Source: a virus. From it: a stretch of 11,824 bases of DNA. A program made the translations under genes and the position numbers. Numbering within the stretch: the first letter of the stretch is position 1; each line of letters starts with the position of its first letter. This document shows, piece after piece, positions 1-11,824 of this stretch. The notes under the pieces are model-generated. The model made no database searches, was not told the origin of the DNA, and was given only the letters and a program-made list of their open reading frames with translations. Location: UHGV virus genome UHGV-1586438, one strand, 5' to 3'.

Positions 1-315
1 ATTACTGACATGCAGATGCGTCAGCGTGATGTTGCTGCGCTCGATGCAAAATACACGAAGGAGTTAGCTGATGCGAAAGCTGAAAATGATGTTCTGCGTG
101 ATGATGTTGCCGCTGGTCGTCGTCGGTTGCACATCAAAGCAGTCTGTCAGTCAGTGCGTGAAGCCACCACCGCCTCCGGCGTGGATAATGCAGCCTCCCC
201 CCGACTGGCAGACACCGCTGAACGGGATTATTTCACCCTCCGGGAACGACTGGTAATGATGCAGGCCCAACTTGAAGGTGCTCAGCAATACATAACCGAG
301 CAGTGTTTAAAGTAA
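1..315 (+). CDS. Rz: Phage i-spanin Rz (inner-membrane spanin), 5'-truncated by the window edge
   Basis: Frame 1 is open from base 1 (ITD MQMRQRDVAALDAKYTKELADAKAEND...) to TAA at 313-315. The translation matches my recollection of the C-terminal two thirds of phage lambda Rz almost residue for residue. It contains an embedded +1-frame Rz1-like ORF, the hallmark of Rz/Rz1 cassettes. The N-terminus lies outside the window. Confidence 0.85.
   Translation: MTDMQMRQRDVAALDAKYTKELADAKAENDVLRDDVAAGRRRLHIKAVCQSVREATTASGVDNAASPRLADTAERDYFTLRERLVMMQAQLEGAQQYITEQCLK
71..256 (+). CDS. Rz1: Phage o-spanin Rz1 (outer-membrane lipoprotein), embedded out of frame within Rz
   Basis: 61-aa ORF wholly inside Rz in the +1 frame. 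It has a signal peptide ending in a lipobox-like LVVVGC (Cys for lipidation) followed by a proline-rich stretch (PPPPPAWIMQPPPDWQTP), which is the lambda Rz1 architecture. Confidence 0.8.
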   Translation: MRKLKMMFCVMMLPLVVVGCTSKQSVSQCVKPPPPPAWIMQPPPDWQTPLNGIISPSGNDW

Positions 316-452
316 AATCTTAACTACAATATGATTCATTTTGATGATTGTTTCATAAGGAACAGTGAAGTAAGATCTAAGAGGAGTTAAATTTTATACA
401 GTATAATCATAATATTGCAGCAAGGTGGTTATAATTGAAAGAATATTTAGAT
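316..452 (+). promoter_or_regulatory. AT-rich intergenic region upstream of trkG; candidate promoter/RBS region
   Basis: 137-bp AT-rich non-coding gap between the Rz stop and the trkG ATG. TATAAT hexamers occur at 402-407 and 430-435 but neither has a convincing -35 partner, and no strong Shine-Dalgarno precedes the ATG at 453. Exact promoter position is not resolvable by eye. Confidence 0.25.
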
Positions 453-1910
453 ATGAATACATCTCATGTAAGAGTTGTTACTCATATGTGTGGGTTCCTG
501 GTTTGGCTCTATAGTCTTTCAATGTTGCCACCAATGGTTGTAGCATTGTTTTATAAAGAAAAAAGCCTGTTCGTTTTCTTTATAACTTTCGTTATATTTT
601 TTTGCATTGGTGGCGGAGCGTGGTATACAACTAAGAAATCTGGCATTCAATTACGTACCCGTGATGGGTTTATTATAATTGTAATGTTTTGGATTTTGTT
701 TTCTGTTATTAGTGCATTCCCTTTATGGATTGACTCAGAACTTAATTTAACGTTCATTGATGCTCTGTTTGAAGGGGTTTCTGGAATAACAACAACAGGA
801 GCAACTGTAATTGATGATGTTAGTTCATTACCTCGGGCAATTTTGTACTATCGGTCACAGTTAAATTTTATAGGTGGTTTAGGAGTTATTGTTCTGGCGG
901 TTGCTGTATTGCCATTATTGGGTATTGGTGGTGCAAAGCTTTATCAGTCAGAAATGCCGGGGCCATTTAAGGATGACAAACTCACTCCCCGCCTGGCCGA
1001 TACGTCACGGACACTGTGGATAACTTATTCTTTATTAGGTATTGCTTGTATTGTCTGTTATAGACTTGCAGGAATGCCTTTGTTTGATGCTATTTGTCAC
1101 GGGATTTCCACAGTTTCGCTTGGTGGTTTCTCAACTCATAGCGAGAGTATCGGATATTTTAATAACTATTTGGTTGAGCTGGTGGCTGGTTCTTTTTCCC
1201 TGCTATCGGCTTTCAACTTCACTCTTTGGTATATTGTTATTAGCAGGAAAACGATAAAACCTTTAATCAGAGATATTGAACTTCGTTTCTTTCTGTTAAT
1301 AGCCTTAGGGGTGATCATTGTTACCTCTTTCCAGGTCTGGCATATAGGTATGTATGACTTGCATGGAAGTTTTATTCATTCGTTTTTTCTTGCCAGCTCC
1401 ATGCTCACTGATAATGGTTTAGCTACGCAAGATTATGCAAGTTGGCCCACGCACACGATAGTGTTTTTGCTGTTGTCAAGTTTCTTTGGGGGATGTATAG
1501 GTTCAACTTGTGGTGGAATTAAGTCACTTCGATTTCTTATACTTTTCAAACAAAGCAAACACGAGATAAATCAGCTTTCTCATCCCAGAGCGTTGTTGAG
1601 TGTAAATGTAGGAGGGAAGATAGTTACAGATCGTGTAATGAGGTCTGTATGGAGTTTCTTTTTTCTTTATACTCTCTTCACGGTGTTTTTTATACTGGTG
1701 TTAAATGGTATGGGATATGATTTTCTTACATCATTTGCAACAGTGGCTGCATGTATTAATAATATGGGATTAGGTTTTGGGGCTACTGCATCGTCATTCG
1801 GAGTGCTTAATGACATTGCAAAATGTTTAATGTGCATAGCTATGATTCTTGGTCGCCTTGAAATTTATCCTGTTATTATATTGTTTTCAGGTTTTTTTTG
1901 GCGCTCCTAA
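453..1910 (+). CDS. trkG: TrkH/TrkG-family K+ uptake membrane protein (prophage moron)
   Basis: 485-aa polytopic membrane protein from ATG 453; the track's 435 start is a TTG six codons upstream. It shows TrkH-family signatures: repeated pore-loop glycine motifs (GVSGITTTGATV, LGGFSTH, ATQDYASWP), the EMPGPFKDDKLTPRLADTSRTLW segment, and FGGCIGSTCGGIKSLRFLILFKQ. N-terminus MNTSHVRVV and length match my recollection of E. coli K-12 TrkG, which sits immediately downstream of the Rz/Rz1 homologues in the Rac prophage. The gene is markedly more AT-rich than its neighbours. Confidence 0.9.
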   Translation: MNTSHVRVVTHMCGFLVWLYSLSMLPPMVVALFYKEKSLFVFFITFVIFFCIGGGAWYTTKKSGIQLRTRDGFIIIVMFWILFSVISAFPLWIDSELNLTFIDALFEGVSGITTTGATVIDDVSSLPRAILYYRSQLNFIGGLGVIVLAVAVLPLLGIGGAKLYQSEMPGPFKDDKLTPRLADTSRTLWITYSLLGIACIVCYRLAGMPLFDAICHGISTVSLGGFSTHSESIGYFNNYLVELVAGSFSLLSAFNFTLWYIVISRKTIKPLIRDIELRFFLLIALGVIIVTSFQVWHIGMYDLHGSFIHSFFLASSMLTDNGLATQDYASWPTHTIVFLLLSSFFGGCIGSTCGGIKSLRFLILFKQSKHEINQLSHPRALLSVNVGGKIVTDRVMRSVWSFFFLYTLFTVFFILVLNGMGYDFLTSFATVAACINNMGLGFGATASSFGVLNDIAKCLMCIAMILGRLEIYPVIILFSGFFWRS

Positions 1911-1996
1911 TATATGGCTGATTTATAATTGTGAGTTTAATATTATGTTGACTCACTCATTGATCCAATACCTAACTTTACCAGCAACCCCTCCGT

Positions 1997-2030
1997 CCCC
2001 AGTAGCACTGGCTGCTGGGGTGCGTTTTAT
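1997..2030 (+). terminator. Candidate intrinsic terminator downstream of trkG
   Basis: Hairpin CCCCAGTAGC (1997-2006) / loop ACTG / GCTGCTGGGG (2011-2020), a 10-bp stem with one G-U pair, followed by TGCGTTTTATT. The U-tract is interrupted, so efficiency is uncertain. Confidence 0.4.
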
Positions 2031-2047
2031 TCATAAAGCAAGGCTGT

Positions 2048-2839
2048 ATGAGCGAGAAATTAAAGATAGTCTATCGCCCATTACAAGAATTGTCACCGTA
2101 TGCGCACAACGCCAGGACGCACAGCCCTGAGCAGGTGGCACAACTGGTAGAAAGTATTAAGCAATTCGGCTGGACTAATCCGGTGCTGATTGACGAAAAG
2201 GGCGAAATTATTGCGGGTCACGGTCGTGTTATGGCGGCTGAAATGCTCAAAATGGATTCTGTTCCGGTCATTGTTCTGTCTGGCCTGACGGATGAGCAGA
2301 AAAAGGCGTACCGCCTGGCAGATAATCGCCTGCCGATGAATGCTGGCTGGGATGAAGATCTGTTGCGGATGGAGCTGTCGGACCTAATCAATGCTGATTT
2401 TGATGTCTCCCTGACAGGCTTCATCCCGACAGAAATTGATGAACTGTTGACGGATGTTTTGCCCGGTACAGGAAATGAGGAGGAGCCGTATACGACGAAA
2501 ATTGATACGCCTGTTTATGAGCCGTCGGGCGGTAAACCGGATATCAGTGAACTGTACGACGATACGAAAACTCAGGAGCTGATCAGCCGGATACGTTCGG
2601 CGTCCCTTGAGCCTGATATTGAGAAATTCCTCCTGTGTGCGGCAGAACGTCACACGGTGTTTAATTTCAGCAGAATTGCGGACTATTACGCTCACGCCCC
2701 CTCTGAAATTCAGTGTTTTTTCGAGGAGTCGGCGCTGGTGATCATTGATTATCAGCAGGCTATTGAAAATGGATTTGTCCGGATGACGCAGCGCATGGTG
2801 GAGATCATGCATGGTGGTGAGGAGGAGGAATATGCGTGA
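2048..2839 (+). CDS. ParB N-terminal domain (ParB/sulfiredoxin-like nuclease) protein with an uncharacterised C-terminal half
   Basis: 263-aa ORF with AAGG 5 nt upstream of the ATG. The N-terminal ~100 aa (LQELSPYAHNARTH...PVLIDEKGEIIAGHGRVMAA...VIVL) has the ParB-N/Srx pattern, including a GxGR-type motif. The acidic C-terminal part is unassigned. Position (after lysis genes, before terminase) is typical for phage ParB-like proteins. The K-12 Rac gene ynaK occupies the equivalent position but is much shorter. Confidence 0.7.
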   Translation: MSEKLKIVYRPLQELSPYAHNARTHSPEQVAQLVESIKQFGWTNPVLIDEKGEIIAGHGRVMAAEMLKMDSVPVIVLSGLTDEQKKAYRLADNRLPMNAGWDEDLLRMELSDLINADFDVSLTGFIPTEIDELLTDVLPGTGNEEEPYTTKIDTPVYEPSGGKPDISELYDDTKTQELISRIRSASLEPDIEKFLLCAAERHTVFNFSRIADYYAHAPSEIQCFFEESALVIIDYQQAIENGFVRMTQRMVEIMHGGEEEEYA

Positions 2840-3764
2840 TGATTTTTGCGCCTTTATTCTGACTCACGGGCGACCGGACAAAGTTCTGACTTACCGGACG
2901 TTGCGTCGTGCTGGCTATACCGGGAAAATTTTTATCGTTGTTGATGATGAAGATAAGACACGGAATCAGTACATGGCTGAATTTGGTGAACAGGTGCTGG
3001 TGTTTTCCAAAGCCGATATCGCCAGTCGTTTTGACGAAGCCGATAATTTCTGTGACCGCCGCTCAATTTTTTACGCCCGTAATGCCTGTTTCGACCTGGC
3101 AAAACTGGTCGGGTGTAAATACTTCATTCAGCTCGATGATGATTATCACGAGTTCCAGTTTCGGGTGGATCGCAACTATGACCAGGCCTATTTTCCGATA
3201 AGGAAACTGGATGCGATCCTTTCTGAAATGCTGGCGTACTACGAATCAATACCTGCTCTTTCCATCGCTATGTCGCAGGGCGGGGATTTTCTTGGTGACA
3301 ATGGCGGCCATGCTTCGTGGGTGAAACGCAAGGCAATGAACAGCTTTATCTGTTCGGTTGATCGACCGTTCTCATTCATGGGGCGCATTAACGAGGATGT
3401 GAATACGTACACGAATCTCGGTCGCTGTGGTGAATTGTTTATGACGATCGGTGCTGTCCAGTTAGGGCAGAAACAGACGCAGAAAAACAGCGGTGGAATG
3501 ACCGAGCTGTATCTGGATTCCGGAACCTACGTTAAAAGTTTTTACTCCGTCATGTATGCGCCGTCGTGCGTAAAAATCTCACTGATGGGTGCCAGCCATA
3601 AACGCATTCACCATCAGGTCACCTGGAACAACGCTGCAGTAAAAATCCTTCACGAAAAATACAGGAAGAAGACACCCTGCATATCAATGGGGGTGACAAA
3701 TGATTCCGTATTCGAAAGTCGAGTCTCTGGCAGCGTGCCGGATGACTGCACAACAAATCGCTGA
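2832..3764 (+). CDS. GT-A-fold glycosyltransferase-like protein (DxD motif); substrate unknown
   Basis: 310-aa ORF starting at ATG 2832, with GGAGGAGGAA immediately upstream and an 8-nt overlap (ATGCGTGA) with the ParB-like stop, implying translational coupling. Motif order resembles GT-A/GT2 enzymes: FILTHGRPD (beta1), IFIVVDDEDKT (acidic DD motif), FIQLDDDYHEF (DxD). The assignment is motif-based inference only. Confidence 0.6.
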   Translation: MRDDFCAFILTHGRPDKVLTYRTLRRAGYTGKIFIVVDDEDKTRNQYMAEFGEQVLVFSKADIASRFDEADNFCDRRSIFYARNACFDLAKLVGCKYFIQLDDDYHEFQFRVDRNYDQAYFPIRKLDAILSEMLAYYESIPALSIAMSQGGDFLGDNGGHASWVKRKAMNSFICSVDRPFSFMGRINEDVNTYTNLGRCGELFMTIGAVQLGQKQTQKNSGGMTELYLDSGTYVKSFYSVMYAPSCVKISLMGASHKRIHHQVTWNNAAVKILHEKYRKKTPCISMGVTNDSVFESRVSGSVPDDCTTNR

Positions 3765-3951
3765 CGTTCTGGATGTTGATCTGAACCGACTGAAAGAAAA
3801 TCGGGAAGCAATGACAGATTTTTATGCGGCCATCCGTAAGGGCAGAGCGAAAGGTGAAGCCGAGTTACGAGCGGCATTGTTTAAGCTTGCCAGAAAAGGG
3901 GATGCCTTTGCTCTGCGCGAACTACTCAGGGTGGATAAAAATCAGGACTAA
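3700..3951 (+). CDS. Small HTH-like protein of unknown function, immediately upstream of terS
   Basis: 83-aa ORF with GGGGGTGA 5 nt upstream of ATG 3700. It is predicted helical with a helix-turn-helix-like stretch (MTAQQIADVLDVDLNRL) and a basic C-terminus. Its stop (3949-3951) is 3 nt before the terS ATG. It overlaps the last 65 nt of the GT-like gene, so the start is uncertain; an alternative ATG lies at 3742. Confidence 0.5.
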   Translation: MIPYSKVESLAACRMTAQQIADVLDVDLNRLKENREAMTDFYAAIRKGRAKGEAELRAALFKLARKGDAFALRELLRVDKNQD

Positions 3952-3954
3952 CTG

Positions 3955-5049
3955 ATGAGCAGACCGGACTGGGGGGCGTTGCAGCAGGAGTATATTGCTG
4001 AATACACCCGCTCCGGTATATCTCCGGTGGCATGGTGTGAAGCAAGGGGACTGAATTACGCAACAGCCCGTCGTTACATCAAAAAAACTCCGAAAAATGC
4101 GCAGACAGAAATGTGCAAAACTGCGCAAAAAAGTGCGCAGAAAAAATCTGCGCAGACTGCACAAAAGCGGAACGAAAAATCTCAGGAAAAAAAGCCAGTA
4201 TTCGATGCGGGCCTGAATGAGGGCGACGCGGAGGAATTTTCGTTCTGTCCCGATGAATTCGGCATTTCTGACCAGCAGGCTAAGTTTGCGATGCTTGTTG
4301 CTCAGGGTAAAAAGCCGACAGAGGCGTACCGACTAGCCGGTTATGAGGGGCAAGGTGCGACAGCTAACAGCAACGCCAGTCGTATGCTTAGAAATGCCAG
4401 GGTTTTTCGCGCTATCAGCTACTTCCGCAATCAGTACCAGAAACGCTATACCGCAGACCTGGATTTACTAGTGAGTCAGTTGATGGCTATTGTCCTGGCC
4501 GACCCCAATCAGCTTGCACAATTTCGCCGTGTTAACTGCCGTTATTGCTGGGGCGAGAATCATCTCTACCAGTGGCGCGATATAGCAGAATTCGACAAGG
4601 CAGCGGCGCAGGCTTCCAGAGATGGCAAACCCGAACCGGAATATGGAGGCCTCGGCTTTGTTGATAACGCCATACCCAATCCGGACTGCCCGAAGTGCTG
4701 CGGTGAGGGAACGGGACAGCTTTATATGGCTGATACCACTCTGCTTGATGGGGATGCGCGGCAATTATATGCAGGGGCAAAATTCGGAAAATTCGGCGTT
4801 GAGATCCTGCTGGAGGATAAGGCTGCCGCCCGGCGTGAATTGTTGCGTTTGTTTTCTGCTGGCGGGGCTTTATGTGCAGATAAACGGCTACAGGAACTGG
4901 AAATTGAACGGCGCAGAATGGAAAACCAGAAGCTGCGCAAAGAGATCGAAACGGTGGAAGATAATGAACATCCCCAGCCTGTGGCGATCAATATTAATGT
5001 GGTTGATGCCAGAGTAAGGAGTGATGAAGATGATCTCTCCGACGCTTAA
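3955..5049 (+). CDS. Terminase small subunit (Terminase_2/P27-like core with N-terminal HTH extension)
   Basis: 364-aa ORF with AGGA 7 nt upstream. It has an N-terminal HTH-like region (GISPVAWCEARGLNYATARRYIKK), a low-complexity xAQK linker, a core resembling the Terminase_2 signature (QQAKFAMLVAQGKKPTEAYRLAGYEG...SNASRMLRNARV), paired CxxC motifs and a C-terminal coiled-coil-like segment. It lies directly upstream of, and overlaps, the terminase large subunit gene. Confidence 0.75.
   Translation: MSRPDWGALQQEYIAEYTRSGISPVAWCEARGLNYATARRYIKKTPKNAQTEMCKTAQKSAQKKSAQTAQKRNEKSQEKKPVFDAGLNEGDAEEFSFCPDEFGISDQQAKFAMLVAQGKKPTEAYRLAGYEGQGATANSNASRMLRNARVFRAISYFRNQYQKRYTADLDLLVSQLMAIVLADPNQLAQFRRVNCRYCWGENHLYQWRDIAEFDKAAAQASRDGKPEPEYGGLGFVDNAIPNPDCPKCCGEGTGQLYMADTTLLDGDARQLYAGAKFGKFGVEILLEDKAAARRELLRLFSAGGALCADKRLQELEIERRRMENQKLRKEIETVEDNEHPQPVAININVVDARVRSDEDDLSDA
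4098..4166 (+). repeat. Six phased direct repeats of TG(C/T)(G/A)CA(G/A)A inside terS; candidate pac / TerS-binding site
   Basis: Copies begin at 4098 (TGCGCAGA), 4112 (TGTGCAAA), 4122 (TGCGCAAA), 4134 (TGCGCAGA), 4149 (TGCGCAGA) and 4158 (TGCACAAA), with 9-15 bp spacing. They coincide with the low-complexity peptide TAQKSAQKKSAQTAQK. Confidence 0.5.
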
Positions 5050-6331
5050 TGTGCCTCAGGCGCGATTTCTTTCAATGCCCCATAAATTTAAAGCCTATAT
5101 TGCTGGTTTTGGCTCGGGCAAAACATGGGTTGGGTGTGGCGGCATATGCAAGGGGATTTGGGAGCATCCAGGTATAAATCAGGGATATTTTGCGCCAACG
5201 TATCCCCAAATTCGCGATATTTTTTACCCTACAGTGGAAGAAGTTGCTGCTGACTGGGGATTGAACGTAAAAATTAATGAGGGAAATAAAGAGGTTCACT
5301 TTTATTACGGACGCCAGTATCGGGGAACCACTATCTGCAGATCGATGGAGAAGCCACAAACGATCGTCGGTTTCAAAATTGGTAATGCGTTGGTGGATGA
5401 ACTGGACATTTTGCCGAAGGAAAAAGCCAGAACGGCGTGGCGCAAGATAATTGCACGTATGCGTTATAAGATTGATGGACTTCGCAACGGTATTGACGTT
5501 ACAACCACGCCGGAAGGATTCAAATTTGTCTACGAGCAGTTTGTTAAAGCCGTGCGTGAAAAAACAGAGCTGGCCTCACTGTATGGTCTGGTGCAGGCAT
5601 CTACTTTCGATAATGAAAAGAACCTGCCAGCAGATTACATTCCTTCGCTTCTTGAATCATACCCTCCAGAGCTGATTAAAGCCTATCTTCGAGGACAGTT
5701 TACTAACCTGACAAGTGGTACTGTTTACCATCAGTTTGACCGGAAACTGAATAATTGCGAAGAAGTGGAGCAGCCAGGGGAGCCGATTTATATTGGGATG
5801 GATTTTAACGTTGGAAAGATGGCGGGAATCGTCCATGTGCTGCGTTTGGGGCTTCCATGTGCGGTAACTGAAATCATCAATGCCTACGATACGCCGGATA
5901 TGATCCGCATCATTAAAGAACGCTTCTGGCTGTATGATGGGAATGATTACCGGAAAGTGAGGGAAATTTATATTTATCCAGATGCTTCCGGGGATTCCAG
6001 AAAATCAAGTAACGCAAGTACGACGGATATAGCCCAGCTTAAGCAGGCTGGTTTTAACGTTGTGGTGAACAGCTCGAACCCGCCAGTAAAAGATCGCGTT
6101 AACTCAATGAATGCAATGTTCTGCAATGCCAATGGTGAGCGTCGCTATAAAGTTAATGTGAAGCGTTGCCCGTTATATGCCGAATCTCTGGAGCAACAGG
6201 TCTGGGATGAGAAGGGGGAGCCTGATAAAAAATCTGGCAATGATCACCCGAATGATGCCGGAGGTTATTTCATCGTTAAGCAATTCCCTATTGTCAAACC
6301 GACCGGAAGAGTCACATCACTTCGGATTTAA
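5030..6331 (+). CDS. Terminase large subunit (ATPase/nuclease)
   Basis: 433-aa ORF from ATG 5030, with AAGGAG at 5016-5021 (8-nt spacing); the track's 5021 start is a GTG too close to the SD. N-terminal Walker A P-loop (AGFGSGKT), acidic Walker B-like stretch (NALVDELD), size and position between terS and portal all fit. The start overlaps the terS 3' end by 20 nt. Confidence 0.85.
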   Translation: MISPTLNVPQARFLSMPHKFKAYIAGFGSGKTWVGCGGICKGIWEHPGINQGYFAPTYPQIRDIFYPTVEEVAADWGLNVKINEGNKEVHFYYGRQYRGTTICRSMEKPQTIVGFKIGNALVDELDILPKEKARTAWRKIIARMRYKIDGLRNGIDVTTTPEGFKFVYEQFVKAVREKTELASLYGLVQASTFDNEKNLPADYIPSLLESYPPELIKAYLRGQFTNLTSGTVYHQFDRKLNNCEEVEQPGEPIYIGMDFNVGKMAGIVHVLRLGLPCAVTEIINAYDTPDMIRIIKERFWLYDGNDYRKVREIYIYPDASGDSRKSSNASTTDIAQLKQAGFNVVVNSSNPPVKDRVNSMNAMFCNANGERRYKVNVKRCPLYAESLEQQVWDEKGEPDKKSGNDHPNDAGGYFIVKQFPIVKPTGRVTSLRI

Positions 6332-6333
6332 TT

Positions 6334-7740
6334 ATGGCTGATATATCAACACCCAACCTCGACTATAACGATATGCTGGAGGCGTGGGATATTAACGACG
6401 CACTGATGGGCGGTACGCTTGAAATGCGCAGGCAGGGGGAAAATTATCTCCCAAAATGGCCTAACGAAGATGAAGACGCTTATAAAAAACGCCTGTCTGT
6501 GGCTACGCTACTTCCTGTGTATGAAGAAAGCATCAAGCAAAATATTGGGCGCATATTTGCAGAGCCGACAGTATTGAGTGAGGAAACGCCGGCAAAAATC
6601 AGGGAATATGCAGAAAATATCGACATGGAGGGGAGCCGACTGGATGTGTGGGCGCAGCAATTTTTCAGCCTCGCATTTCAGTATGGTGTGGCACATGCGC
6701 TGGTGGACTATCCACGAACGGATATGAAAGAGATTCGTACAAAAGCCGATGAAAACGCGACCGGTGGTCGTCCGTACGTTACGATGCTGAATCCACGCCA
6801 GGTTATTGGATGGAAATCGAAAGTTGAAAAAGGGAAAGTTGTTCTCACTGATTTGCGTATAAAAGAGGTCATCATTATTGATGGTGATGATTTCGGGCAG
6901 AAGAAGGTGGAGCAGATCCGCCATATTATGCCCCGTCGAGTTGAAATTTATCGACGTAGCGAAGGCACTAATGGCGAATCTGTCTGGACGCTTCATGAGT
7001 CATGGAATACCAGCCGTGATGATATTCCTCTGGTAACACTGTACACGAAGAAAACAGGATTTATGCGTGGTACACCGCCATTGCATAATCTTGGCTTGCT
7101 GAATATCAAGCACTGGCAAAGCCAGAGCGAGCAGGACAATATTCTTCATGTTACCCGCGTTCCATTGCTGGTGGCCTACGGGCTGGACAGGAATGAAGAA
7201 CTGACGGTTGGTGCATCCACCGCTACGATTTTTGAGGACAGAACAAAAAATGGCCTCGAATATGTTGAACATAGTGGCGCAGCGATAGAATCTGGCGAAA
7301 CATCACTTGAGAAGCTGGAAAATCAGATGCGTCATGCCGGCGCTAAACTTCTGCGTGCTGAAAATACATCCACCAAATCTGTTGATCAGACTAATGAAGA
7401 GCGAATGCAGGAAAACTCGCCGCTTTATACAATGGCGAACTCCCTCGAAGATGCCCTCGATAATATTCTCCAGATAATGGCGGAATGGATCGGAGAGAGT
7501 TGCGGTGGCAATGTGGATGTGCGCACTGAACTGGATGTATCTGCCCAGGTGTTTGACTCATCCTCCGCGCTGGCTGTTCAGTCATTGCGTCAGGGCGGTG
7601 ATATACGTCAGATTGATGCGGTTCGGGTGTTGCAGGCGTTGAAATTTATCGATCAGGATTCCCGTCCAGAGGAAGTGATCGATGAATTAAAAAATCAGAG
7701 TGTAATGCTGATGGAAATCAATGATGCAAACCGTGAATGA
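6334..7740 (+). CDS. Portal protein
   Basis: 468-aa ORF beginning 3 nt after the terL stop, with an acidic C-terminal region. The call is by conserved synteny (terL then portal then MuF-like protein) and size; no diagnostic motif is visible by eye. Confidence 0.7.
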   Translation: MADISTPNLDYNDMLEAWDINDALMGGTLEMRRQGENYLPKWPNEDEDAYKKRLSVATLLPVYEESIKQNIGRIFAEPTVLSEETPAKIREYAENIDMEGSRLDVWAQQFFSLAFQYGVAHALVDYPRTDMKEIRTKADENATGGRPYVTMLNPRQVIGWKSKVEKGKVVLTDLRIKEVIIIDGDDFGQKKVEQIRHIMPRRVEIYRRSEGTNGESVWTLHESWNTSRDDIPLVTLYTKKTGFMRGTPPLHNLGLLNIKHWQSQSEQDNILHVTRVPLLVAYGLDRNEELTVGASTATIFEDRTKNGLEYVEHSGAAIESGETSLEKLENQMRHAGAKLLRAENTSTKSVDQTNEERMQENSPLYTMANSLEDALDNILQIMAEWIGESCGGNVDVRTELDVSAQVFDSSSALAVQSLRQGGDIRQIDAVRVLQALKFIDQDSRPEEVIDELKNQSVMLMEINDANRE

Positions 7741-8836
7741 ACGGCTGCGTGATGAATCAATTGCTCATGCAGTCTGGATATCCCGCTATAGCACTGGCGT
7801 GGCTGCCAGAATGGTGAAAATACTGAATGACAGCGATGCGGAACTTACTGCTCGCCTGCTGATAGCACTGGACAGCCTCGATCCAGGTAATTTTACCGTT
7901 AAGCGCCTGGAGTCACTTCTGGCGAGCGTCAGAAAGGTTAACCGCACTGCTATTAACAGCATGTTTACCAGTCTCTCCGGAGAGCTGAACGAGCTGGCAA
8001 TTTATGAGGCTGGTTATCAGTTAAGTCTGTTTGATTCTATGCTACCTGATTTTGTTGCTGATGTTCACCCTCTGGTTGGTATCTCTCCTGATGCACTTTA
8101 TGCCGCTGCAATGGCGCGACCATTCCAGGGACGACTGCTCAGTGAGTGGGCCTCAGATCTTGAGGCGGATCGGCTCAGACGCATAACAAATACAGTGCGT
8201 CAGGGTTTTTTGCTGGGGGATACCAATGAGCAGATCGCAAGAAAAATTCGGGGACATGTCAGTAAGGGATTTCAGGATGGTGCATTGCAGATGAGCCGGG
8301 CTAATGCGGCCAGCATTGCAAAAACAGCGGTTGGGCATCTTGCTGCTACTGCCCGTGAGAGTTTTGCCAGCGCGAATAATGATTTGATTAAGGGTAAGCA
8401 ATGGTTATCAACGCTTGATAATCGTACTACGCCACAATGTCGAATCAGGGATCGCCTCAAATATACGCTGAATAATAAACCTGTAGGTCACAGCGTGCCT
8501 TATTTGCAGGGGCCGGGAAAAATTCATTTCTGCTGCCGCTCAACGGAAACGTTCATTCTGAAATCAGCGAAGGAACTGGGTATTGATGTTCGCGATATTT
8601 CCCCGGCTGAGCGGGCCAGCATGGATGGCGTGGTGGCCGGAGATACAACCTACAGGGAATGGTTTTTGCGTCAGCCTTACACCAGACAAAAACAGATTGT
8701 GGGGGAAACCCGAGCAAAGCTGATTCGGGATGGTGGTATGTCGCCAGATGAATTTTACACCGATAAAGGCGAATGGCTGACGCTGAAGCAGCTCCGTGAG
8801 CGTGATGCACAGGTATTCAGAAAAGCAGGGATTTAA
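7721..8836 (+). CDS. Head morphogenesis / minor head protein (SPP1 gp7 / Mu F-like)
   Basis: 371-aa ORF overlapping the portal 3' end by 20 nt; start is either ATG 7721 or 7724. Position immediately after portal and size fit MuF-family proteins. The call is synteny-based. Confidence 0.6.
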   Translation: MMQTVNERLRDESIAHAVWISRYSTGVAARMVKILNDSDAELTARLLIALDSLDPGNFTVKRLESLLASVRKVNRTAINSMFTSLSGELNELAIYEAGYQLSLFDSMLPDFVADVHPLVGISPDALYAAAMARPFQGRLLSEWASDLEADRLRRITNTVRQGFLLGDTNEQIARKIRGHVSKGFQDGALQMSRANAASIAKTAVGHLAATARESFASANNDLIKGKQWLSTLDNRTTPQCRIRDRLKYTLNNKPVGHSVPYLQGPGKIHFCCRSTETFILKSAKELGIDVRDISPAERASMDGVVAGDTTYREWFLRQPYTRQKQIVGETRAKLIRDGGMSPDEFYTDKGEWLTLKQLRERDAQVFRKAGI

Positions 8837-8855
8837 ATAAATCATTTATTACAAC

Positions 8856-8883
8856 AGGCTACCTTCGGGTGGCCTTTTTTATT
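8856..8883 (+). terminator. Intrinsic terminator between head-morphogenesis and scaffold genes
   Basis: AGGCTACC (8856-8863) / UUCG tetraloop (8864-8867) / GGTGGCCT (8868-8875), an 8-bp stem with one G-U pair, running into TTTTTTATT (8875-8883). It sits 20 nt after the stop at 8836. Confidence 0.6.
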
Positions 8884-8940
8884 GCTGCGATCCGGATGGT
8901 GAGCAGCGTAACTGTCGGAAGACTTAAACCAGGTACTAAT

Positions 8941-9705
8941 ATGAAACTGAAAACGGTCGAGATTAACGGAAAACAATACGCAGAAATTGATACTGCTGGC
9001 CTGCCAGTTTATGTGCACGACGATGGTAAAGAAATTGGCTTCGATGCACCGCTGGCGACAAAAAAAATTACAGAGCTTAATGGCGAGGCAAAAAATCATC
9101 GCCTGGCTAAAGAAGCTGCAGAGGAAAAACTGGCTAAGTTTGCCGCTATCGAAGACCCGAAGAAGGCGATCGAGGCACTGGAAATGCTGTCAAAAATCGA
9201 CCAGAAAAAGCTGCTCGATGCGGGACAGGTTGACCAGGTTAAGGCAGAAATTACGAAAAATTTTCAGCAGCAATTAGATGAAGAAAAGCAACGCTCTCAG
9301 ATGCTGGAGAAGCAGCTTTACGATTCTATGATTGGCGGTAGTTTTGCGGGTTCAAAATATATTGCCGATAAAATTGCGATCCCGGCAGATTTATTACAAG
9401 CCCGCTTCGGGCAGGCATTCAAAGTGGAAGAAGGGAGGATCGTTGCTTATGACGCTTCCGGCAACAAAATTTATTCCCGCGCGAAGCCTGGCGAACTGGC
9501 GCAGTTTGATGAGGCGCTGGAGTTCCTTGTCGAAAATTACCCTCAGAAAGACTACATCCTGAAAGCCAGTGGCAACAATGGCGGCGGCTCCCGTCCGACA
9601 CAGCATGATATTGGTCAGAAAACGATGAAACGCTCTGCTTTTGATGCACTGGATGTTGCAGGTAAGCAAAACGCATTGAAAGACGGTATCACAATCGTTG
9701 ATTAA
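8941..9705 (+). CDS. Putative scaffolding protein
   Basis: 254-aa ORF from ATG 8941 (MKLKTVEINGK...). The track's 8869 start lies inside the terminator hairpin and is rejected. The central segment is charged and helical (EAAEEKLAKFAAIEDPKKAIEALEMLSKIDQKKLL...QQQLDEEKQRSQMLEKQLY), as expected for a scaffold, and the gene is immediately upstream of the major capsid gene. The SD is weak (AGGT); an alternative start is ATG 8896. Confidence 0.5.
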   Translation: MKLKTVEINGKQYAEIDTAGLPVYVHDDGKEIGFDAPLATKKITELNGEAKNHRLAKEAAEEKLAKFAAIEDPKKAIEALEMLSKIDQKKLLDAGQVDQVKAEITKNFQQQLDEEKQRSQMLEKQLYDSMIGGSFAGSKYIADKIAIPADLLQARFGQAFKVEEGRIVAYDASGNKIYSRAKPGELAQFDEALEFLVENYPQKDYILKASGNNGGGSRPTQHDIGQKTMKRSAFDALDVAGKQNALKDGITIVD

Positions 9706-9803
9706 CACATTTGTCAGCTTCCGGATGGGAGCTGGTGTCAGGGCTGGATAGCTCATTACTCCATCTATTCACAATTACGCAAATTTTTAAGGAATATTTA
9801 ATT

Positions 9804-10943
9804 ATGGCTGGAAATACCCTGACCGGGTTGATCTCGACTATTTATACCGCCCTGGATGTTGTATCCCGTGAGCAGGTAGGTTTTATCCCTGCGGTAGCAA
9901 AAAACGCAAAAGCTGACGCCGCAGCAAAAGATCAGACGGTAACCGCGCCAGTTGCGCCTGAGGCGAAAACCGAAGATATCGTACCGGGGCCGTCAGCTCC
10001 GAATACCGGTGATCAAAATATTGGCACTGTTGATGTAAAAATTACTAAATCCAAAATGGCACCGGTTAAATGGAATGGTGAAGAACAACTGGCTCTTGGC
10101 CCTTCAGGGACTTACAACACCATTCTGGCTGATCAGTTCAAGCAGGCTTTTCGCGCCCTTGCAAACGAGGTTGAGGCTGATCTTGGTGCGTTGTATTTCG
10201 GTGCTTCCCGCGCCGTGGGAACCGCAGGGACAACGCCGTTTGGTGTTAAAGATGATCTTTCTGATGCTGCTCTGGCTCGTCAGGTTCTGGAGGATAACGG
10301 CGCACCGACAACCGATCTGCAGATGGTGCTTGGCTCCACTGCCATTGCTAATTTGCGCGGAAAACAGTCTGTATTGTTTAAAGTGAATGAATCCGGCACT
10401 GAACAGCTACTGCGTGAGGGCGTGTTGGGGCGTCTGGAGGGATTCAATATTCACAGTTCGGCAGGTGTGAAACGAGCGCCAAAGGTTGCTGCAACTGGTT
10501 ATCTCGTGAATGGAGAGAAAAAAGAAGGCGATGTTCTTATTTCCATTGATACTGGTTCGGGGAGTATTTCTGCAGGTCAGATTGTTACGTTCGCTGGTGA
10601 TCCGAATCAGTATGTTGTGGCAGCAGCGACCAGCAATCTGATTACTCTTGCAGCGCCCGGACTGCGTCAGGATCTGGCCGATGATACTGCCATCACAGTT
10701 GTTGGGGCCTTTACGGCAAATATGGCGTTTGATCGCAACGCGTTTCTGCTGGCATCCCGTACTCCGGCAATGCCGGAAGGTGGCGATAATGCTGATGATG
10801 TAATGAATGTTACGGACCCGATTTCAGGGATTACGTTCCAGATTGCACTGTATCGTCAGTATCGCCAGGTGCGCTATGAAGTTGGACTGGCATGGGGTGT
10901 TTCATCAGTGAAGCCGGCACATGGTTGTCTGATTCTTGGTTAA
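9804..10943 (+). CDS. Major capsid protein
   Basis: 379-aa ORF from ATG 9804 with a good SD (AAGGAA at 9789-9794, 9-nt spacing). The upstream in-frame extension in the track (from 9711) has no RBS. Position after the scaffold gene, size, Gly/Ala/Thr-rich composition and a strong terminator directly downstream are all typical of a capsid gene. The structural family was not determined. Confidence 0.7.
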   Translation: MAGNTLTGLISTIYTALDVVSREQVGFIPAVAKNAKADAAAKDQTVTAPVAPEAKTEDIVPGPSAPNTGDQNIGTVDVKITKSKMAPVKWNGEEQLALGPSGTYNTILADQFKQAFRALANEVEADLGALYFGASRAVGTAGTTPFGVKDDLSDAALARQVLEDNGAPTTDLQMVLGSTAIANLRGKQSVLFKVNESGTEQLLREGVLGRLEGFNIHSSAGVKRAPKVAATGYLVNGEKKEGDVLISIDTGSGSISAGQIVTFAGDPNQYVVAAATSNLITLAAPGLRQDLADDTAITVVGAFTANMAFDRNAFLLASRTPAMPEGGDNADDVMNVTDPISGITFQIALYRQYRQVRYEVGLAWGVSSVKPAHGCLILG

Positions 10944-10953
10944 ACATTCAAAC

Positions 10954-10973
10954 GGGGCTTCGGCCCCATTTTT
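10954..10973 (+). terminator. Intrinsic terminator downstream of the major capsid gene
   Basis: GGGGC (10954-10958) / UUCG tetraloop / GCCCC (10963-10967) followed by ATTTTT (10968-10973), 11 nt after the capsid stop codon. It overlaps an alternative hairpin CCCCATT/TTT/AATGGGG (10964-10980). Confidence 0.55.
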
Positions 10974-10985
10974 AATGGGGGGCAT

Positions 10986-11162
10986 ATGGCCGGATTAACT
11001 AAAGAGCAAAGAGCACAGCGTGAAGCCGCACAAAAAACGCAAATTGAGTTAGTGGTTATGGTGACCGATTATCAGATGTTTCCCGGCGCACCAACTATCG
11101 CTAATGTTCATCCTGATGAAGTTGACAACTGGAAGGCTATGGGCTGGAAAACTCAGGAGTAA
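10986..11162 (+). CDS. Hypothetical 58-aa protein (not in the supplied ORF track)
   Basis: Hand-translated: MAGLTKEQRAQREAAQKTQIELVVMVTDYQMFPGAPTIANVHPDEVDNWKAMGWKTQE, stop TAA at 11160-11162. A G-rich SD (GGGGGG at 10977-10982) lies 3 nt upstream. It exactly fills the gap between the capsid terminator and the next gene, whose own SD (AGGAG) lies in its last codons. Confidence 0.35.
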   Translation: MAGLTKEQRAQREAAQKTQIELVVMVTDYQMFPGAPTIANVHPDEVDNWKAMGWKTQE

Positions 11163-11165
11163 CAC

Positions 11166-11561
11166 ATGATCACTTACGTGACCTGTGATGACGTTGATAA
11201 TGCGTTTGGGAACGCCTGGACGAGTGAGAACGCTAAAAATAAAGCTGTTTTAATGGCTAATGCCTGGCTTAATGGCTTCAACCTGAAAATTAACCCATCC
11301 CGTATTCCGGAAGAGGTAAAACTTGCGGGAGCATATGCAGCCAGAATTGCCTCATTCGGTAAGTTGTTTCAGCAGAAAAATGATTCTGGCGTTGTTATCA
11401 GTAAAGCCGTGTCGGCTGACGGGGTCAGTGTATCGAAATCATTTTCTGAGTTGCCAGCAAACAGCACTGCATTGCTTGAACCCGATTTACAGCTTGCGAT
11501 AGCACTGCTGAAACCGTACGGACTTAGTCGCTCACAAGTCAGGGTTGTGAGGGGGGGATAA
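11166..11561 (+). CDS. Putative head-tail connector / head completion protein
   Basis: 131-aa ORF with AGGAG 6 nt upstream of the ATG. A small protein directly after the capsid gene in a head module is typically a connector or adaptor. Its stop overlaps the next ATG (ATAATGG). The call is from synteny only. Confidence 0.5.
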   Translation: MITYVTCDDVDNAFGNAWTSENAKNKAVLMANAWLNGFNLKINPSRIPEEVKLAGAYAARIASFGKLFQQKNDSGVVISKAVSADGVSVSKSFSELPANSTALLEPDLQLAIALLKPYGLSRSQVRVVRGG

Positions 11562-11812
11562 TGGGGCTTCGTGAAGAGATTCAGTCAGAGGTTGCCGCTG
11601 CTTTTGATGAGGATTTAGCGGACGCCGTGAGTGATTTTTCTGGTTCTTACGTTACGCACCGGCACTGGGATCCTGTGACGGAAACTGGCGGCGAATCCAC
11701 CGCAATCTATACCGGGCGAGGAAATTTGAGGAGAGCGGACCTTAGTACGAGAGGACCGGGTTGGACGTACCGCTGGTGCACCTGTTGTTCTGCCAAGGGC
11801 ATAGCAGGGTAG
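11561..11812 (+). CDS. ORF of uncertain validity: phage-like N-terminal ~47 codons, remainder reads through 23S rRNA-like sequence
   Basis: ATG 11561 overlaps the stop of the preceding gene by one base. The first ~47 codons (MGLREEIQSEVAAAFDEDLADAVSDFSGSYVTHRHWDPVTETGGEST) look like ordinary coding sequence. From about 11703 the DNA matches the 23S rRNA domain VI region, so the C-terminal 'protein' (NLRRADLSTRGPGWTYRWCTCCSAKGIAG) is probably a non-biological read-through. Confidence 0.25.
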   Translation: MGLREEIQSEVAAAFDEDLADAVSDFSGSYVTHRHWDPVTETGGESTAIYTGRGNLRRADLSTRGPGWTYRWCTCCSAKGIAG

Positions 11813-11824
11813 CTAAGTACGGAC
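11703..11824 (+). rRNA. Partial 23S rRNA-like fragment (domain VI, sarcin-ricin loop region), not E. coli-type, truncated by the window end
   Basis: An exact copy of the universally conserved sarcin-ricin loop AGTACGAGAGGACCGG lies at 11734-11749. Flanks match my recollection of bacterial 23S rRNA: GGAAATTTGAG upstream, and GGACG.ACC.CTGGTG...GTTGT..TGCCAA.GGCA...GGTAGCTAA.T.CGGA downstream. About 15 or more substitutions relative to E. coli 23S over ~85 nt, some apparently paired, suggest a different bacterial lineage. The upstream boundary is approximate. Confidence 0.55.

Follow-up and report, generated by a model that had tools for sequence, protein, structure and literature searches.

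The 11,824-nucleotide (nt) stretch of DNA analyzed here in full, which we call the window, belongs to the virus genome UHGV-1586438 and carries the K+ transporter gene trkG followed by a set of phage packaging and head genes. According to our analysis, it is very probably the left part of the late operon of a full-length Rac prophage lineage of Escherichia coli. Two earlier papers place the Rac prophage of E. coli K-12 in a family of which other members are complete, and treat the K-12 copy as decayed (PMC6379469, which cites Lawrence et al. 2001; PMC4632033). The original prediction, made from the letters of the window, had stated that in K-12 trkG is followed by ynaK, the ydaY pseudogene and a tape-measure fragment (tmpR), with the packaging and head genes deleted, and had taken the window for a possible less decayed relative of Rac. 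The K-12 annotation confirms this order (trkG, ynaK, ydaY, then ynaA/tmpR).

The comparison that carries this reading is with the prophage of E. coli SE11 (NC_011415.1, ~1475.4-1528.0 kb), an element of ~52.6 kb situated at ttcA. Its left boundary is formed by ttcA-intR-xisR-rcbA-ralR-recT-recE, and at its right end stand stfR-tfaR and the att core in a 43-bp copy. Between these ends lie the genes of a repressor, of replication, of a Q-type antiterminator, of lysis and of a lambda-like tail. Window positions 1-11721 align to it at 99.92% identity (9 mismatches) with identical gene calls, and the positions of our open reading frames (ORFs) agree with the RefSeq gene calls of SE11 at a constant offset, SE11-stretch coordinates being the window coordinates plus 19000.

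In a BLAST comparison the SE11 prophage is collinear with K-12 Rac (NC_000913.3 1411899-1434958), with 99.1-99.9% identity in the arms beside the deletions and ~94-95% at the stfR/tfaR end. Judged by this alignment, K-12 Rac is demonstrably the SE11-type arrangement minus three deletions. The first removed 10,976 bp (SE11-stretch 7895-18870) from DUF1627/ydaW to the middle of Rz, of which the K-12 rzpR is a pseudogene remnant. The second removed 11,560 bp (SE11-stretch 21302-32861), from window position 2302 within a ParB-like gene to ydaY, and the third 8,446 bp (SE11-stretch 34622-43067), from the middle of the tape-measure gene to lom. An IS5 additionally sits in lomR of K-12 Rac.

The second deletion is the one that connects the window to K-12. 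The K-12 segment rzpR/rzoR-trkG-ynaK is 99.6% identical to the window and its match covers positions 1-2301 only, placing the left breakpoint at 2301/2302. On its left flank, SE11-stretch 18871-21301 matches K-12 up to K-12 Rac position 16631; on its right flank, SE11-stretch 32862-34621 is 99.9% identical to K-12 ydaY-ynaA, resuming at 16630. The K-12 gene ynaK corresponds to the first ~85 codons of the ParB-like gene, and PHROGs identifies ydaY as a fragment of a gene for a tail assembly chaperone. Since this deletion starts at window position 2302 and ends at ydaY, the head genes of the window are Rac's own lost ones. The predicted kinship with Rac is thereby upheld: what the deletion took from K-12 is exactly this set of head genes. 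This provides a base-level account of the origin of K-12 Rac by three deletions, the one of the head genes reaching from about codon 85 of the ParB-like gene to ydaY.

At all three K-12 junctions (K-12 Rac 14201/14202, 16630/16631 and 18388/18389), the flanking BLAST blocks overlap by ~2 nt. The deletions are consistent with illegitimate, microhomology-level joining, and not with site-specific or IS-mediated events.

Gene content and integrity of the block

ORFs were taken from a six-frame listing of the window and assigned to families with Pfam and PHROGs. The window is a single rightward gene run (+ strand throughout) from Rz through the 5' part of Hc1, and no internal stops were found in its genes in the six-frame listing. 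Coupling is tight, neighbors overlapping by 8, 23, 20, 17 and 1 nt or lying 2-3 nt apart, and the genes from the ParB-like gene to Ad1 form one uninterrupted, coupled run beginning 5' of the K-12 breakpoint at 2302. No tRNA genes were found in the window.

The packaging genes comprise terS (3955-5049), encoding a small terminase subunit of 364 amino acids (aa) (Pfam Terminase_2, 4e-8; phrog_51, 1.7e-75 over the full length), and terL (5030-6331), encoding a large subunit of 433 aa with a T4-type ATPase and an RNaseH-like nuclease (Terminase_6N, 4e-33; Terminase_6C, 3e-10; phrog_2). They are followed by the portal gene (6334-7740, 468 aa; DUF4055, 2e-44; phrog_145 portal, 1e-164), a MuF-like minor head or head-morphogenesis gene (7724-8836, 370 aa; Phage_Mu_F, 1e-8; phrog_241, 8e-182), a scaffolding protein gene (8941-9705, 254 aa; DUF6651, 1e-60; phrog_784 and phrog_206, head scaffolding) and the gene of a major capsid protein of the P22-coat family (9804-10943, 379 aa; P22_CoatProtein, 1e-12; phrog_283, 1e-135). 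Terminase subunits, portal, MuF, scaffold and capsid stand in the order expected of a head module, all as open frames. A small conserved head-module ORF, orf58 (10986-11162; phrog_1514, 3.5e-43), and the head-tail adaptor Ad1 (11166-11561, 131 aa; phrog_493, 7e-49) complete the block. Of the head-closure gene Hc1 only the 5' part (11561-11721, ~160 nt) is present, cut by the foreign sequence discussed below; the full SE11 gene (SE11-stretch 30561-30944) matches phrog_161.

The run of terS, terL, portal, MuF-like, scaffold, capsid and connector ORFs that had been predicted downstream of trkG was thus found in place and free of stops. The prediction was incomplete upstream of it, having missed three genes between trkG and terS, namely those of the ParB-like protein (2048-2839), a TAGT-family glycosyltransferase (2832-3764) and orf69 (3742-3951).

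The 11 genes that lie completely within the block have their full lengths, and these agree with those of a ~75%-identical Pantoea relative; frameshifts or stops that might have escaped visual inspection were not found. Of 38 IMG/VR loci with at least 95% identity, 34 have a full-length terL free of stops and 36 such a portal gene. Ratios of non-synonymous to synonymous substitution (dN/dS), calculated by the Nei-Gojobori method for the window against alleles diverged by 2-11%, were 0.11 for the ParB-like gene, 0.08-0.14 for TAGT, 0.10-0.26 for terS, 0.03-0.05 for terL, 0.07-0.10 for the portal gene and 0.11 for MuF. Such values (0.03-0.26) indicate purifying selection on all six genes.

Upstream of the block, the window begins with the 3' part of the Rz spanin gene (1-315, beginning upstream of the window; Pfam Phage_lysis, 1e-46; phrog_13, Rz-like spanin; annotated as 'lysis protein' in SE11). 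Embedded in it is Rz1 (71-256; phrog_3198, 3.5e-29), an outer-membrane spanin gene that by alignment is the counterpart of K-12 rzoR. The trkG gene follows at 453-1910 (Pfam TrkH, 6e-145). It is inserted between two phage genes of one operon, and the GC fraction is 0.33-0.41 across positions 250-2000 versus ~0.48-0.50 in the phage genes. An AT-rich, promoter-like region lies at 306-450, where the promoter count was not above shuffled expectation. On the 3' side, just before the start of the ParB-like gene, we noted a terminator-like element at 1997-2030, consisting of a hairpin (1997-2020; 10-bp stem with 7 GC pairs) and a T-run, TGCGTTTTAT, which is a consensus match only. These features are suggestive of trkG having its own transcription signals, and by its composition and position trkG looks like a classic moron, an additional cargo gene with expression of its own. 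Given the hairpin and T-run 3' of trkG, late transcription would have to read through them in order to reach the head genes.

Prevalence, proposed late cycle and rival explanations

In order to determine how common the undeleted form is, 5,426 complete E. coli genomes were searched by megablast. At least 80% of the window was present in 711 of them and the K-12-type ynaK|ydaY junction in 348, while trkG was detected in 1,539. Window positions 1-11721 occur in one piece at 99.9% identity in hundreds of chromosomes. Among complete genomes the form without the deletion outnumbers the K-12 form roughly two to one, and the notion that the arrangement is unusual, as the original prediction had implied, does not hold. 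The finding is in this sense already known, the form being annotated in hundreds of RefSeq genomes, and our literature search found no paper describing a trkG-bearing full-length Rac. We regard it as ordinary apart from the under-explored ParB-glycosyltransferase pair that precedes the terminase genes. Its value lies in an ancestor-like form with trkG and an HK639-type head that is common in wild E. coli and distinct from Sp10, CP-933R and KingRac, and that would be useful for rebuilding or inducing an authentic Rac and for studying trkG carriage and Rac-mediated transduction.

The ParB-like gene is also where many other deletions begin. In many assemblies the ParB N-terminus, broken at aa 153-200, is fused to varied downstream Rac genes, including TAGT, terS, terL, orf58, tail tube, tail K, Lom, stfR and tfaR. 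Eleven of the breakpoints fall at aa 162-168, and the region of interest is window 2460-2720 (codons ~140-224). The junctions carry only short microhomologies and the deletions are independent. The cluster could be a hotspot, or could reflect selection keeping trkG while the late genes go; we claim no mechanism, and the search with the ParB protein biases toward breakpoints within its gene.

Variation is likewise seen in the nin region of full-length Rac, where the cargo differs between strains and in all cases lies within the first K-12 deletion. SE11 carries a DUF262 (GmrSD-like) protein, a TPR protein and an IS3 (SE11-stretch 8890-13811), and the record vB_EcoS-683R6 an FtsH-like AAA protein and an S8 peptidase (25439-29457). 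This cargo probably consists of defence genes.

We posit the following late cycle for the element. After induction, Q-antiterminated late transcription would read through the lysis genes and trkG into the block. TerS would recognize a pac site, and the T4-type TerL would cut the DNA and pump it through the portal by headful, the mode of packaging that its Terminase_6N/6C domains suggest. The coat protein would assemble on the scaffold without a prohead protease, as in P22- and HK639-type heads; no gene for such a protease is encoded in the packaging-head block, which fits scaffold-dependent assembly of this type. Ad1 and Hc1, together with the downstream lambda-like tail genes seen in relatives, would complete a siphovirus, and the ParB-TAGT pair would most likely act on DNA around the time of packaging. 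The suggestion of the original prediction that the prophage is possibly still inducible is in keeping with the intact ORFs and the dN/dS values.

Several observations weigh against this picture of a full-length and potentially active Rac. The window shows 11.7 kb of its own genome, and integrase, att, repressor, replication and tail genes lie outside it. Among the steps of the cycle, we infer packaging by headful, the passage of transcription through the trkG terminator and the production of virions. Partially deleted versions occur in many E. coli strains, and the SE11 copy carries its IS3 in the nin region. No cultured phage with this module at >90% identity was found in the phage collection. 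Ten records of that collection cover at least 80% of the window, and these appear to be in-silico prophage calls: the two that we inspected hold host genes (abgT...ttcA; sitABCD, uspF, ompN), and the remaining eight belong to the same survey series of prophages, whose source preprint is a genomic survey. The vB_EcoS-xxx records and Salmonella phage SPF_0923 were considered as proof of induction and rejected as partial or in-silico prophage calls, and no experimental record of induction for this module was found in the literature. Finally, the 3' end of the source contig is a chimera. Every E. coli match stops at 11721, and positions 11719-11824 are 99% identical over 106-107 nt to Lachnospiraceae and Clostridia contigs. 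They cover part of a bacterial 23S rRNA gene, namely its sarcin-ricin loop region (Rfam LSU_rRNA_bacteria, 84.7 bits, E 4e-26), and at the junction overlap the phage Hc1 sequence by 3-4 nt. An Rfam search of the whole window returned nothing, the rRNA tail being seen only when searched alone. The chimeric end probably stems from gut metagenome assembly and leaves positions 1-11721 unaffected.

That last point bears on the notion that the window as a whole is an assembly artefact with an unreal gene order. The ~105 nt of Lachnospiraceae-type rRNA do show that the contig end is chimeric, but hundreds of finished E. coli chromosomes carry positions 1-11721 as a single collinear piece, with 99.9% identity, and we consider an artefact extremely improbable. 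Hardly more credible is a recombination of the head genes next to trkG from an unrelated prophage, in which case they would reveal nothing of the K-12 Rac ancestor. Mosaicism is indeed seen in the lambdoid prophages at ttcA, as Sakai Sp10 and KingRac share the Rac left arm while their late genes are wholly different and lack trkG, and terS alleles within the lineage range from 74 to 99% identity. Against such mosaicism, the sequences that flank the K-12 deletion directly adjoin the block on both sides in SE11, with identities of 99.7% and 99.9%, and the alignment to K-12 Rac, which could have exposed a foreign origin, thus does not refute the kinship. The left junction moreover lies inside an ORF (ParB to ynaK) and the right one at the ydaY fragment, which is the signature of a deletion in K-12 and not of an insertion.

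More serious is the possibility that the block is intact in sequence while the prophage is defective and would no longer give infectious Rac virions, being kept for trkG and further genes that benefit the host, or for use as a helper or in gene transfer. Rac-type prophages decay frequently, as is evident from the K-12 junction in 348 genomes and the many other deletions starting in the ParB-like gene; besides the IS3 insertion in SE11, recE of vB_EcoS-683R6 is split into two ORFs, and the phage collection holds no isolated phage with the module at >90% identity. Yet none of the 11 complete genes is shortened, between-allele dN/dS of 0.03-0.25 argues for selection on protein function, and the whole block is retained in 711 genomes. 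Gene sets that look complete from int to tfaR exist in SE11 and vB_EcoS-683R6, both with intR/xisR and att repeats at ttcA and the block present, and a head module of the HK639 type is functional in a cultured lambdoid phage. We therefore regard a defective prophage as conceivable but rather unlikely, and favor the reading of the window as part of a full-length Rac.

A ParB-like protein paired with a glycosyltransferase

The two genes that precede the terminase region and overlap by 8 nt (2048-3764 for the pair) deserve separate consideration. The first encodes a protein of 263 aa with a ParB/Srx N-terminal domain (2048-2839; Pfam ParB_N, 28.9 bits at a cutoff of 26.3; phrog_620, 8.5e-91). It matches Spo0J/ParB N-domains in PDB, with the AGHGR motif aligned to AGERR, and the GxxR nucleotide-binding motif is kept in 16 of 18 homologues. 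The resemblance to ParB structures is confined to the N-domain; the C-terminal 120 aa are conserved though without a Pfam match. The pair is not a canonical partition system, as no ParA was found in the window or in related loci.

The second gene (2832-3764) encodes a GT-A glycosyltransferase of 310 aa of the TAGT family (PF20691), with 121 bits at a cutoff of 27.5 (8e-35, covering profile positions 4-205 of 205; phrog_842, 1e-103). An AlphaFold2 model, built with 20 fairly similar sequences, is confident for residues ~1-150 only, the C-terminal half being of low confidence. The top Foldseek matches of this model are the GT-A enzymes SpsA, SunS and glycogenin (E 5e-5 to 1e-3), and a PDB search with the sequence gave no match. 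The motif LDDDY (D102-D104) is invariant in nine sequences from Proteobacteria, Firmicutes, Actinobacteria, Bacteroidota and a halovirus, as are ~25 further residues of the alignment. A role of this ORF as a ParB-dependent dioxygenase was also considered and dropped, since Pfam, the DxD motif and the GT-A fold identify a glycosyltransferase. The E. coli allele has a C-terminal extension of ~25 aa (window 3700-3764), in the stretch overlapping orf69, while all other homologues end near residue 285 without it.

The small conserved orf69 (3742-3951) shares its first 23 nt with the 3' end of the glycosyltransferase gene and stops 3 nt before terS. It matches an internal portion only of the terS family phrog_309 (positions 157-218 of 319, 1e-17), counterparts of ~85 aa are found at the same place in most related loci, and its product may be a terminase accessory or DNA-binding subunit.

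The association of the pair with packaging genes is widespread. In every one of the related loci fetched (86/86), the glycosyltransferase gene begins within the ParB-like ORF. In 22 dereplicated loci, lysis and Q genes lie upstream of the pair and small and large terminase genes downstream, the latter with three TerL families and five portal families. The order ParB-glycosyltransferase-terminase also occurs in cultured phages, namely Lactobacillus gasseri phi jlb1, L. delbrueckii c5, where the two are the first genes after cos, and a Porphyromonas phage. In Nocardia phage NTR1 a glycosyltransferase gene likewise precedes the terminase, and the gene upstream of it, a putative ParB counterpart, is unannotated. 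In the haloarchaeal virus HHTV-2 the pair lies ~3 kb upstream of terL, with 43% identity to the E. coli enzyme. A different setting is found in large lytic Vibrio phages of 191 kb such as pv27, where a glycosyltransferase of 45% identity (4887-5888), without an adjacent ParB, lies between primase, exonuclease and helicase genes. The replication-gene context in Vibrio phages also points to DNA as the substrate.

By analogy, DNA-directed and packaging-linked glycosylation is the most likely role of the pair, the reason being an experimental precedent for a ParB-fold activator of a DNA-modifying enzyme in the ParB-dependent phage thymine dioxygenases (5mYOX + ParB) (PMC13229309; PNAS 2026). As a more specific and tentative proposal, we suggest that ParB and TAGT could make up a module of two components that works independently of TET. 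Shortly before encapsidation or in its course, the module would glycosylate DNA, or else some other universal substrate linked to packaging, and the ParB partner would load or activate the enzyme on duplex DNA. No TET/JBP (5mYOX) dioxygenase, thymidylate-synthase-type gene or hydroxymethylcytosine (hmC) pathway gene was found in the window, in the annotated SE11 prophage or among the listed Pfam families of 222 flanking ORFs from the 22 loci (all 23 downstream families and the first 25 of 54 upstream families). We found no literature on a ParB-TAGT pair without a dioxygenase, though an earlier description may still exist. If the pair does modify DNA without prior hydroxymethylation, it would represent a new and widespread route of phage DNA modification and give a history to K-12 ynaK.

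Comparison with known phages and enzymes

Complete Rac-like prophages are known from other strains. Sp10 and CP-933R of E. coli O157:H7 were reported to be replication- and transfer-proficient (PMC4632033, PMC6731689, PMC12251178), and KingRac can be induced with mitomycin, forms particles and, in the mouse gut, takes the place of K-12 Rac (PMC6731689, PMC12251178). Like Rac, all three lie at ttcA with an int-xis-recET-kil-sieB left arm. The late region of Sp10 is however unrelated to the window, with an HNH gene, a terS of 187 aa, a terL of 553 aa, a protease-capsid fusion and no trkG, and that of KingRac is of the lambda type (Nu1/A/W/B/C/D/E), again without trkG. KingRac was accordingly rejected as the phage of the window, its head genes being lambda-type by size (510/1929/204/1593/1506/348/1029 bp). 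Sp10 of O157 Sakai was also rejected as a carrier of the module, as tblastn with all window proteins gave no match in Sakai 1905-1955 kb, a segment that covers Sp10 from int into the portal genes, minus the last ~17.7 kb. From these comparisons, the trkG-bearing form with an HK639-type head is, as judged by its sequence, the authentic K-12 progenitor type.

The cultured phage closest to the head module of the window is HK639 (NC_016158), a lambdoid siphovirus. Amino acid identity is 69% for the portal, 50% for MuF (HK639_04), 65% for the scaffold (HK639_05), 75% for the major head protein and 62% for orf58 (HK639_07). The two share the order portal-MuF-scaffold-capsid-orf58-Ad1-Hc1, which in HK639 continues with Neck1 and the tail terminator. 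HK639 differs in its terminase, whose subunits of 216 aa (terS) and 523 aa (terL) have no detectable similarity to those of the window, and in lacking trkG, ParB and TAGT.

For the ParB-TAGT pair, two enzyme systems offer themselves for comparison. The beta-glucosyl-HMC-alpha-glucosyltransferase of T2/T6, by which glucosylated hmC in DNA receives a second glucose, is assigned to PF20691 in two papers of 2026 (PMC13216743, PMC13390438). The enzyme of the window thus belongs to the same Pfam family, the T-even enzymes being too distant for detection by tblastn, and differs from TAGT enzymes in that the TET/hmC association by which these are defined was not found for the pair among the genes and listed families covered. 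In the 5mYOX + ParB system, the partner is a dioxygenase and not, as in the window, a glycosyltransferase. The architecture is nevertheless alike, in that a ParB-fold protein of ~260 aa without an obvious DNA-binding domain stands beside a DNA-modifying enzyme of ~290 aa, a likeness that in the window remains conditional on DNA being the substrate.

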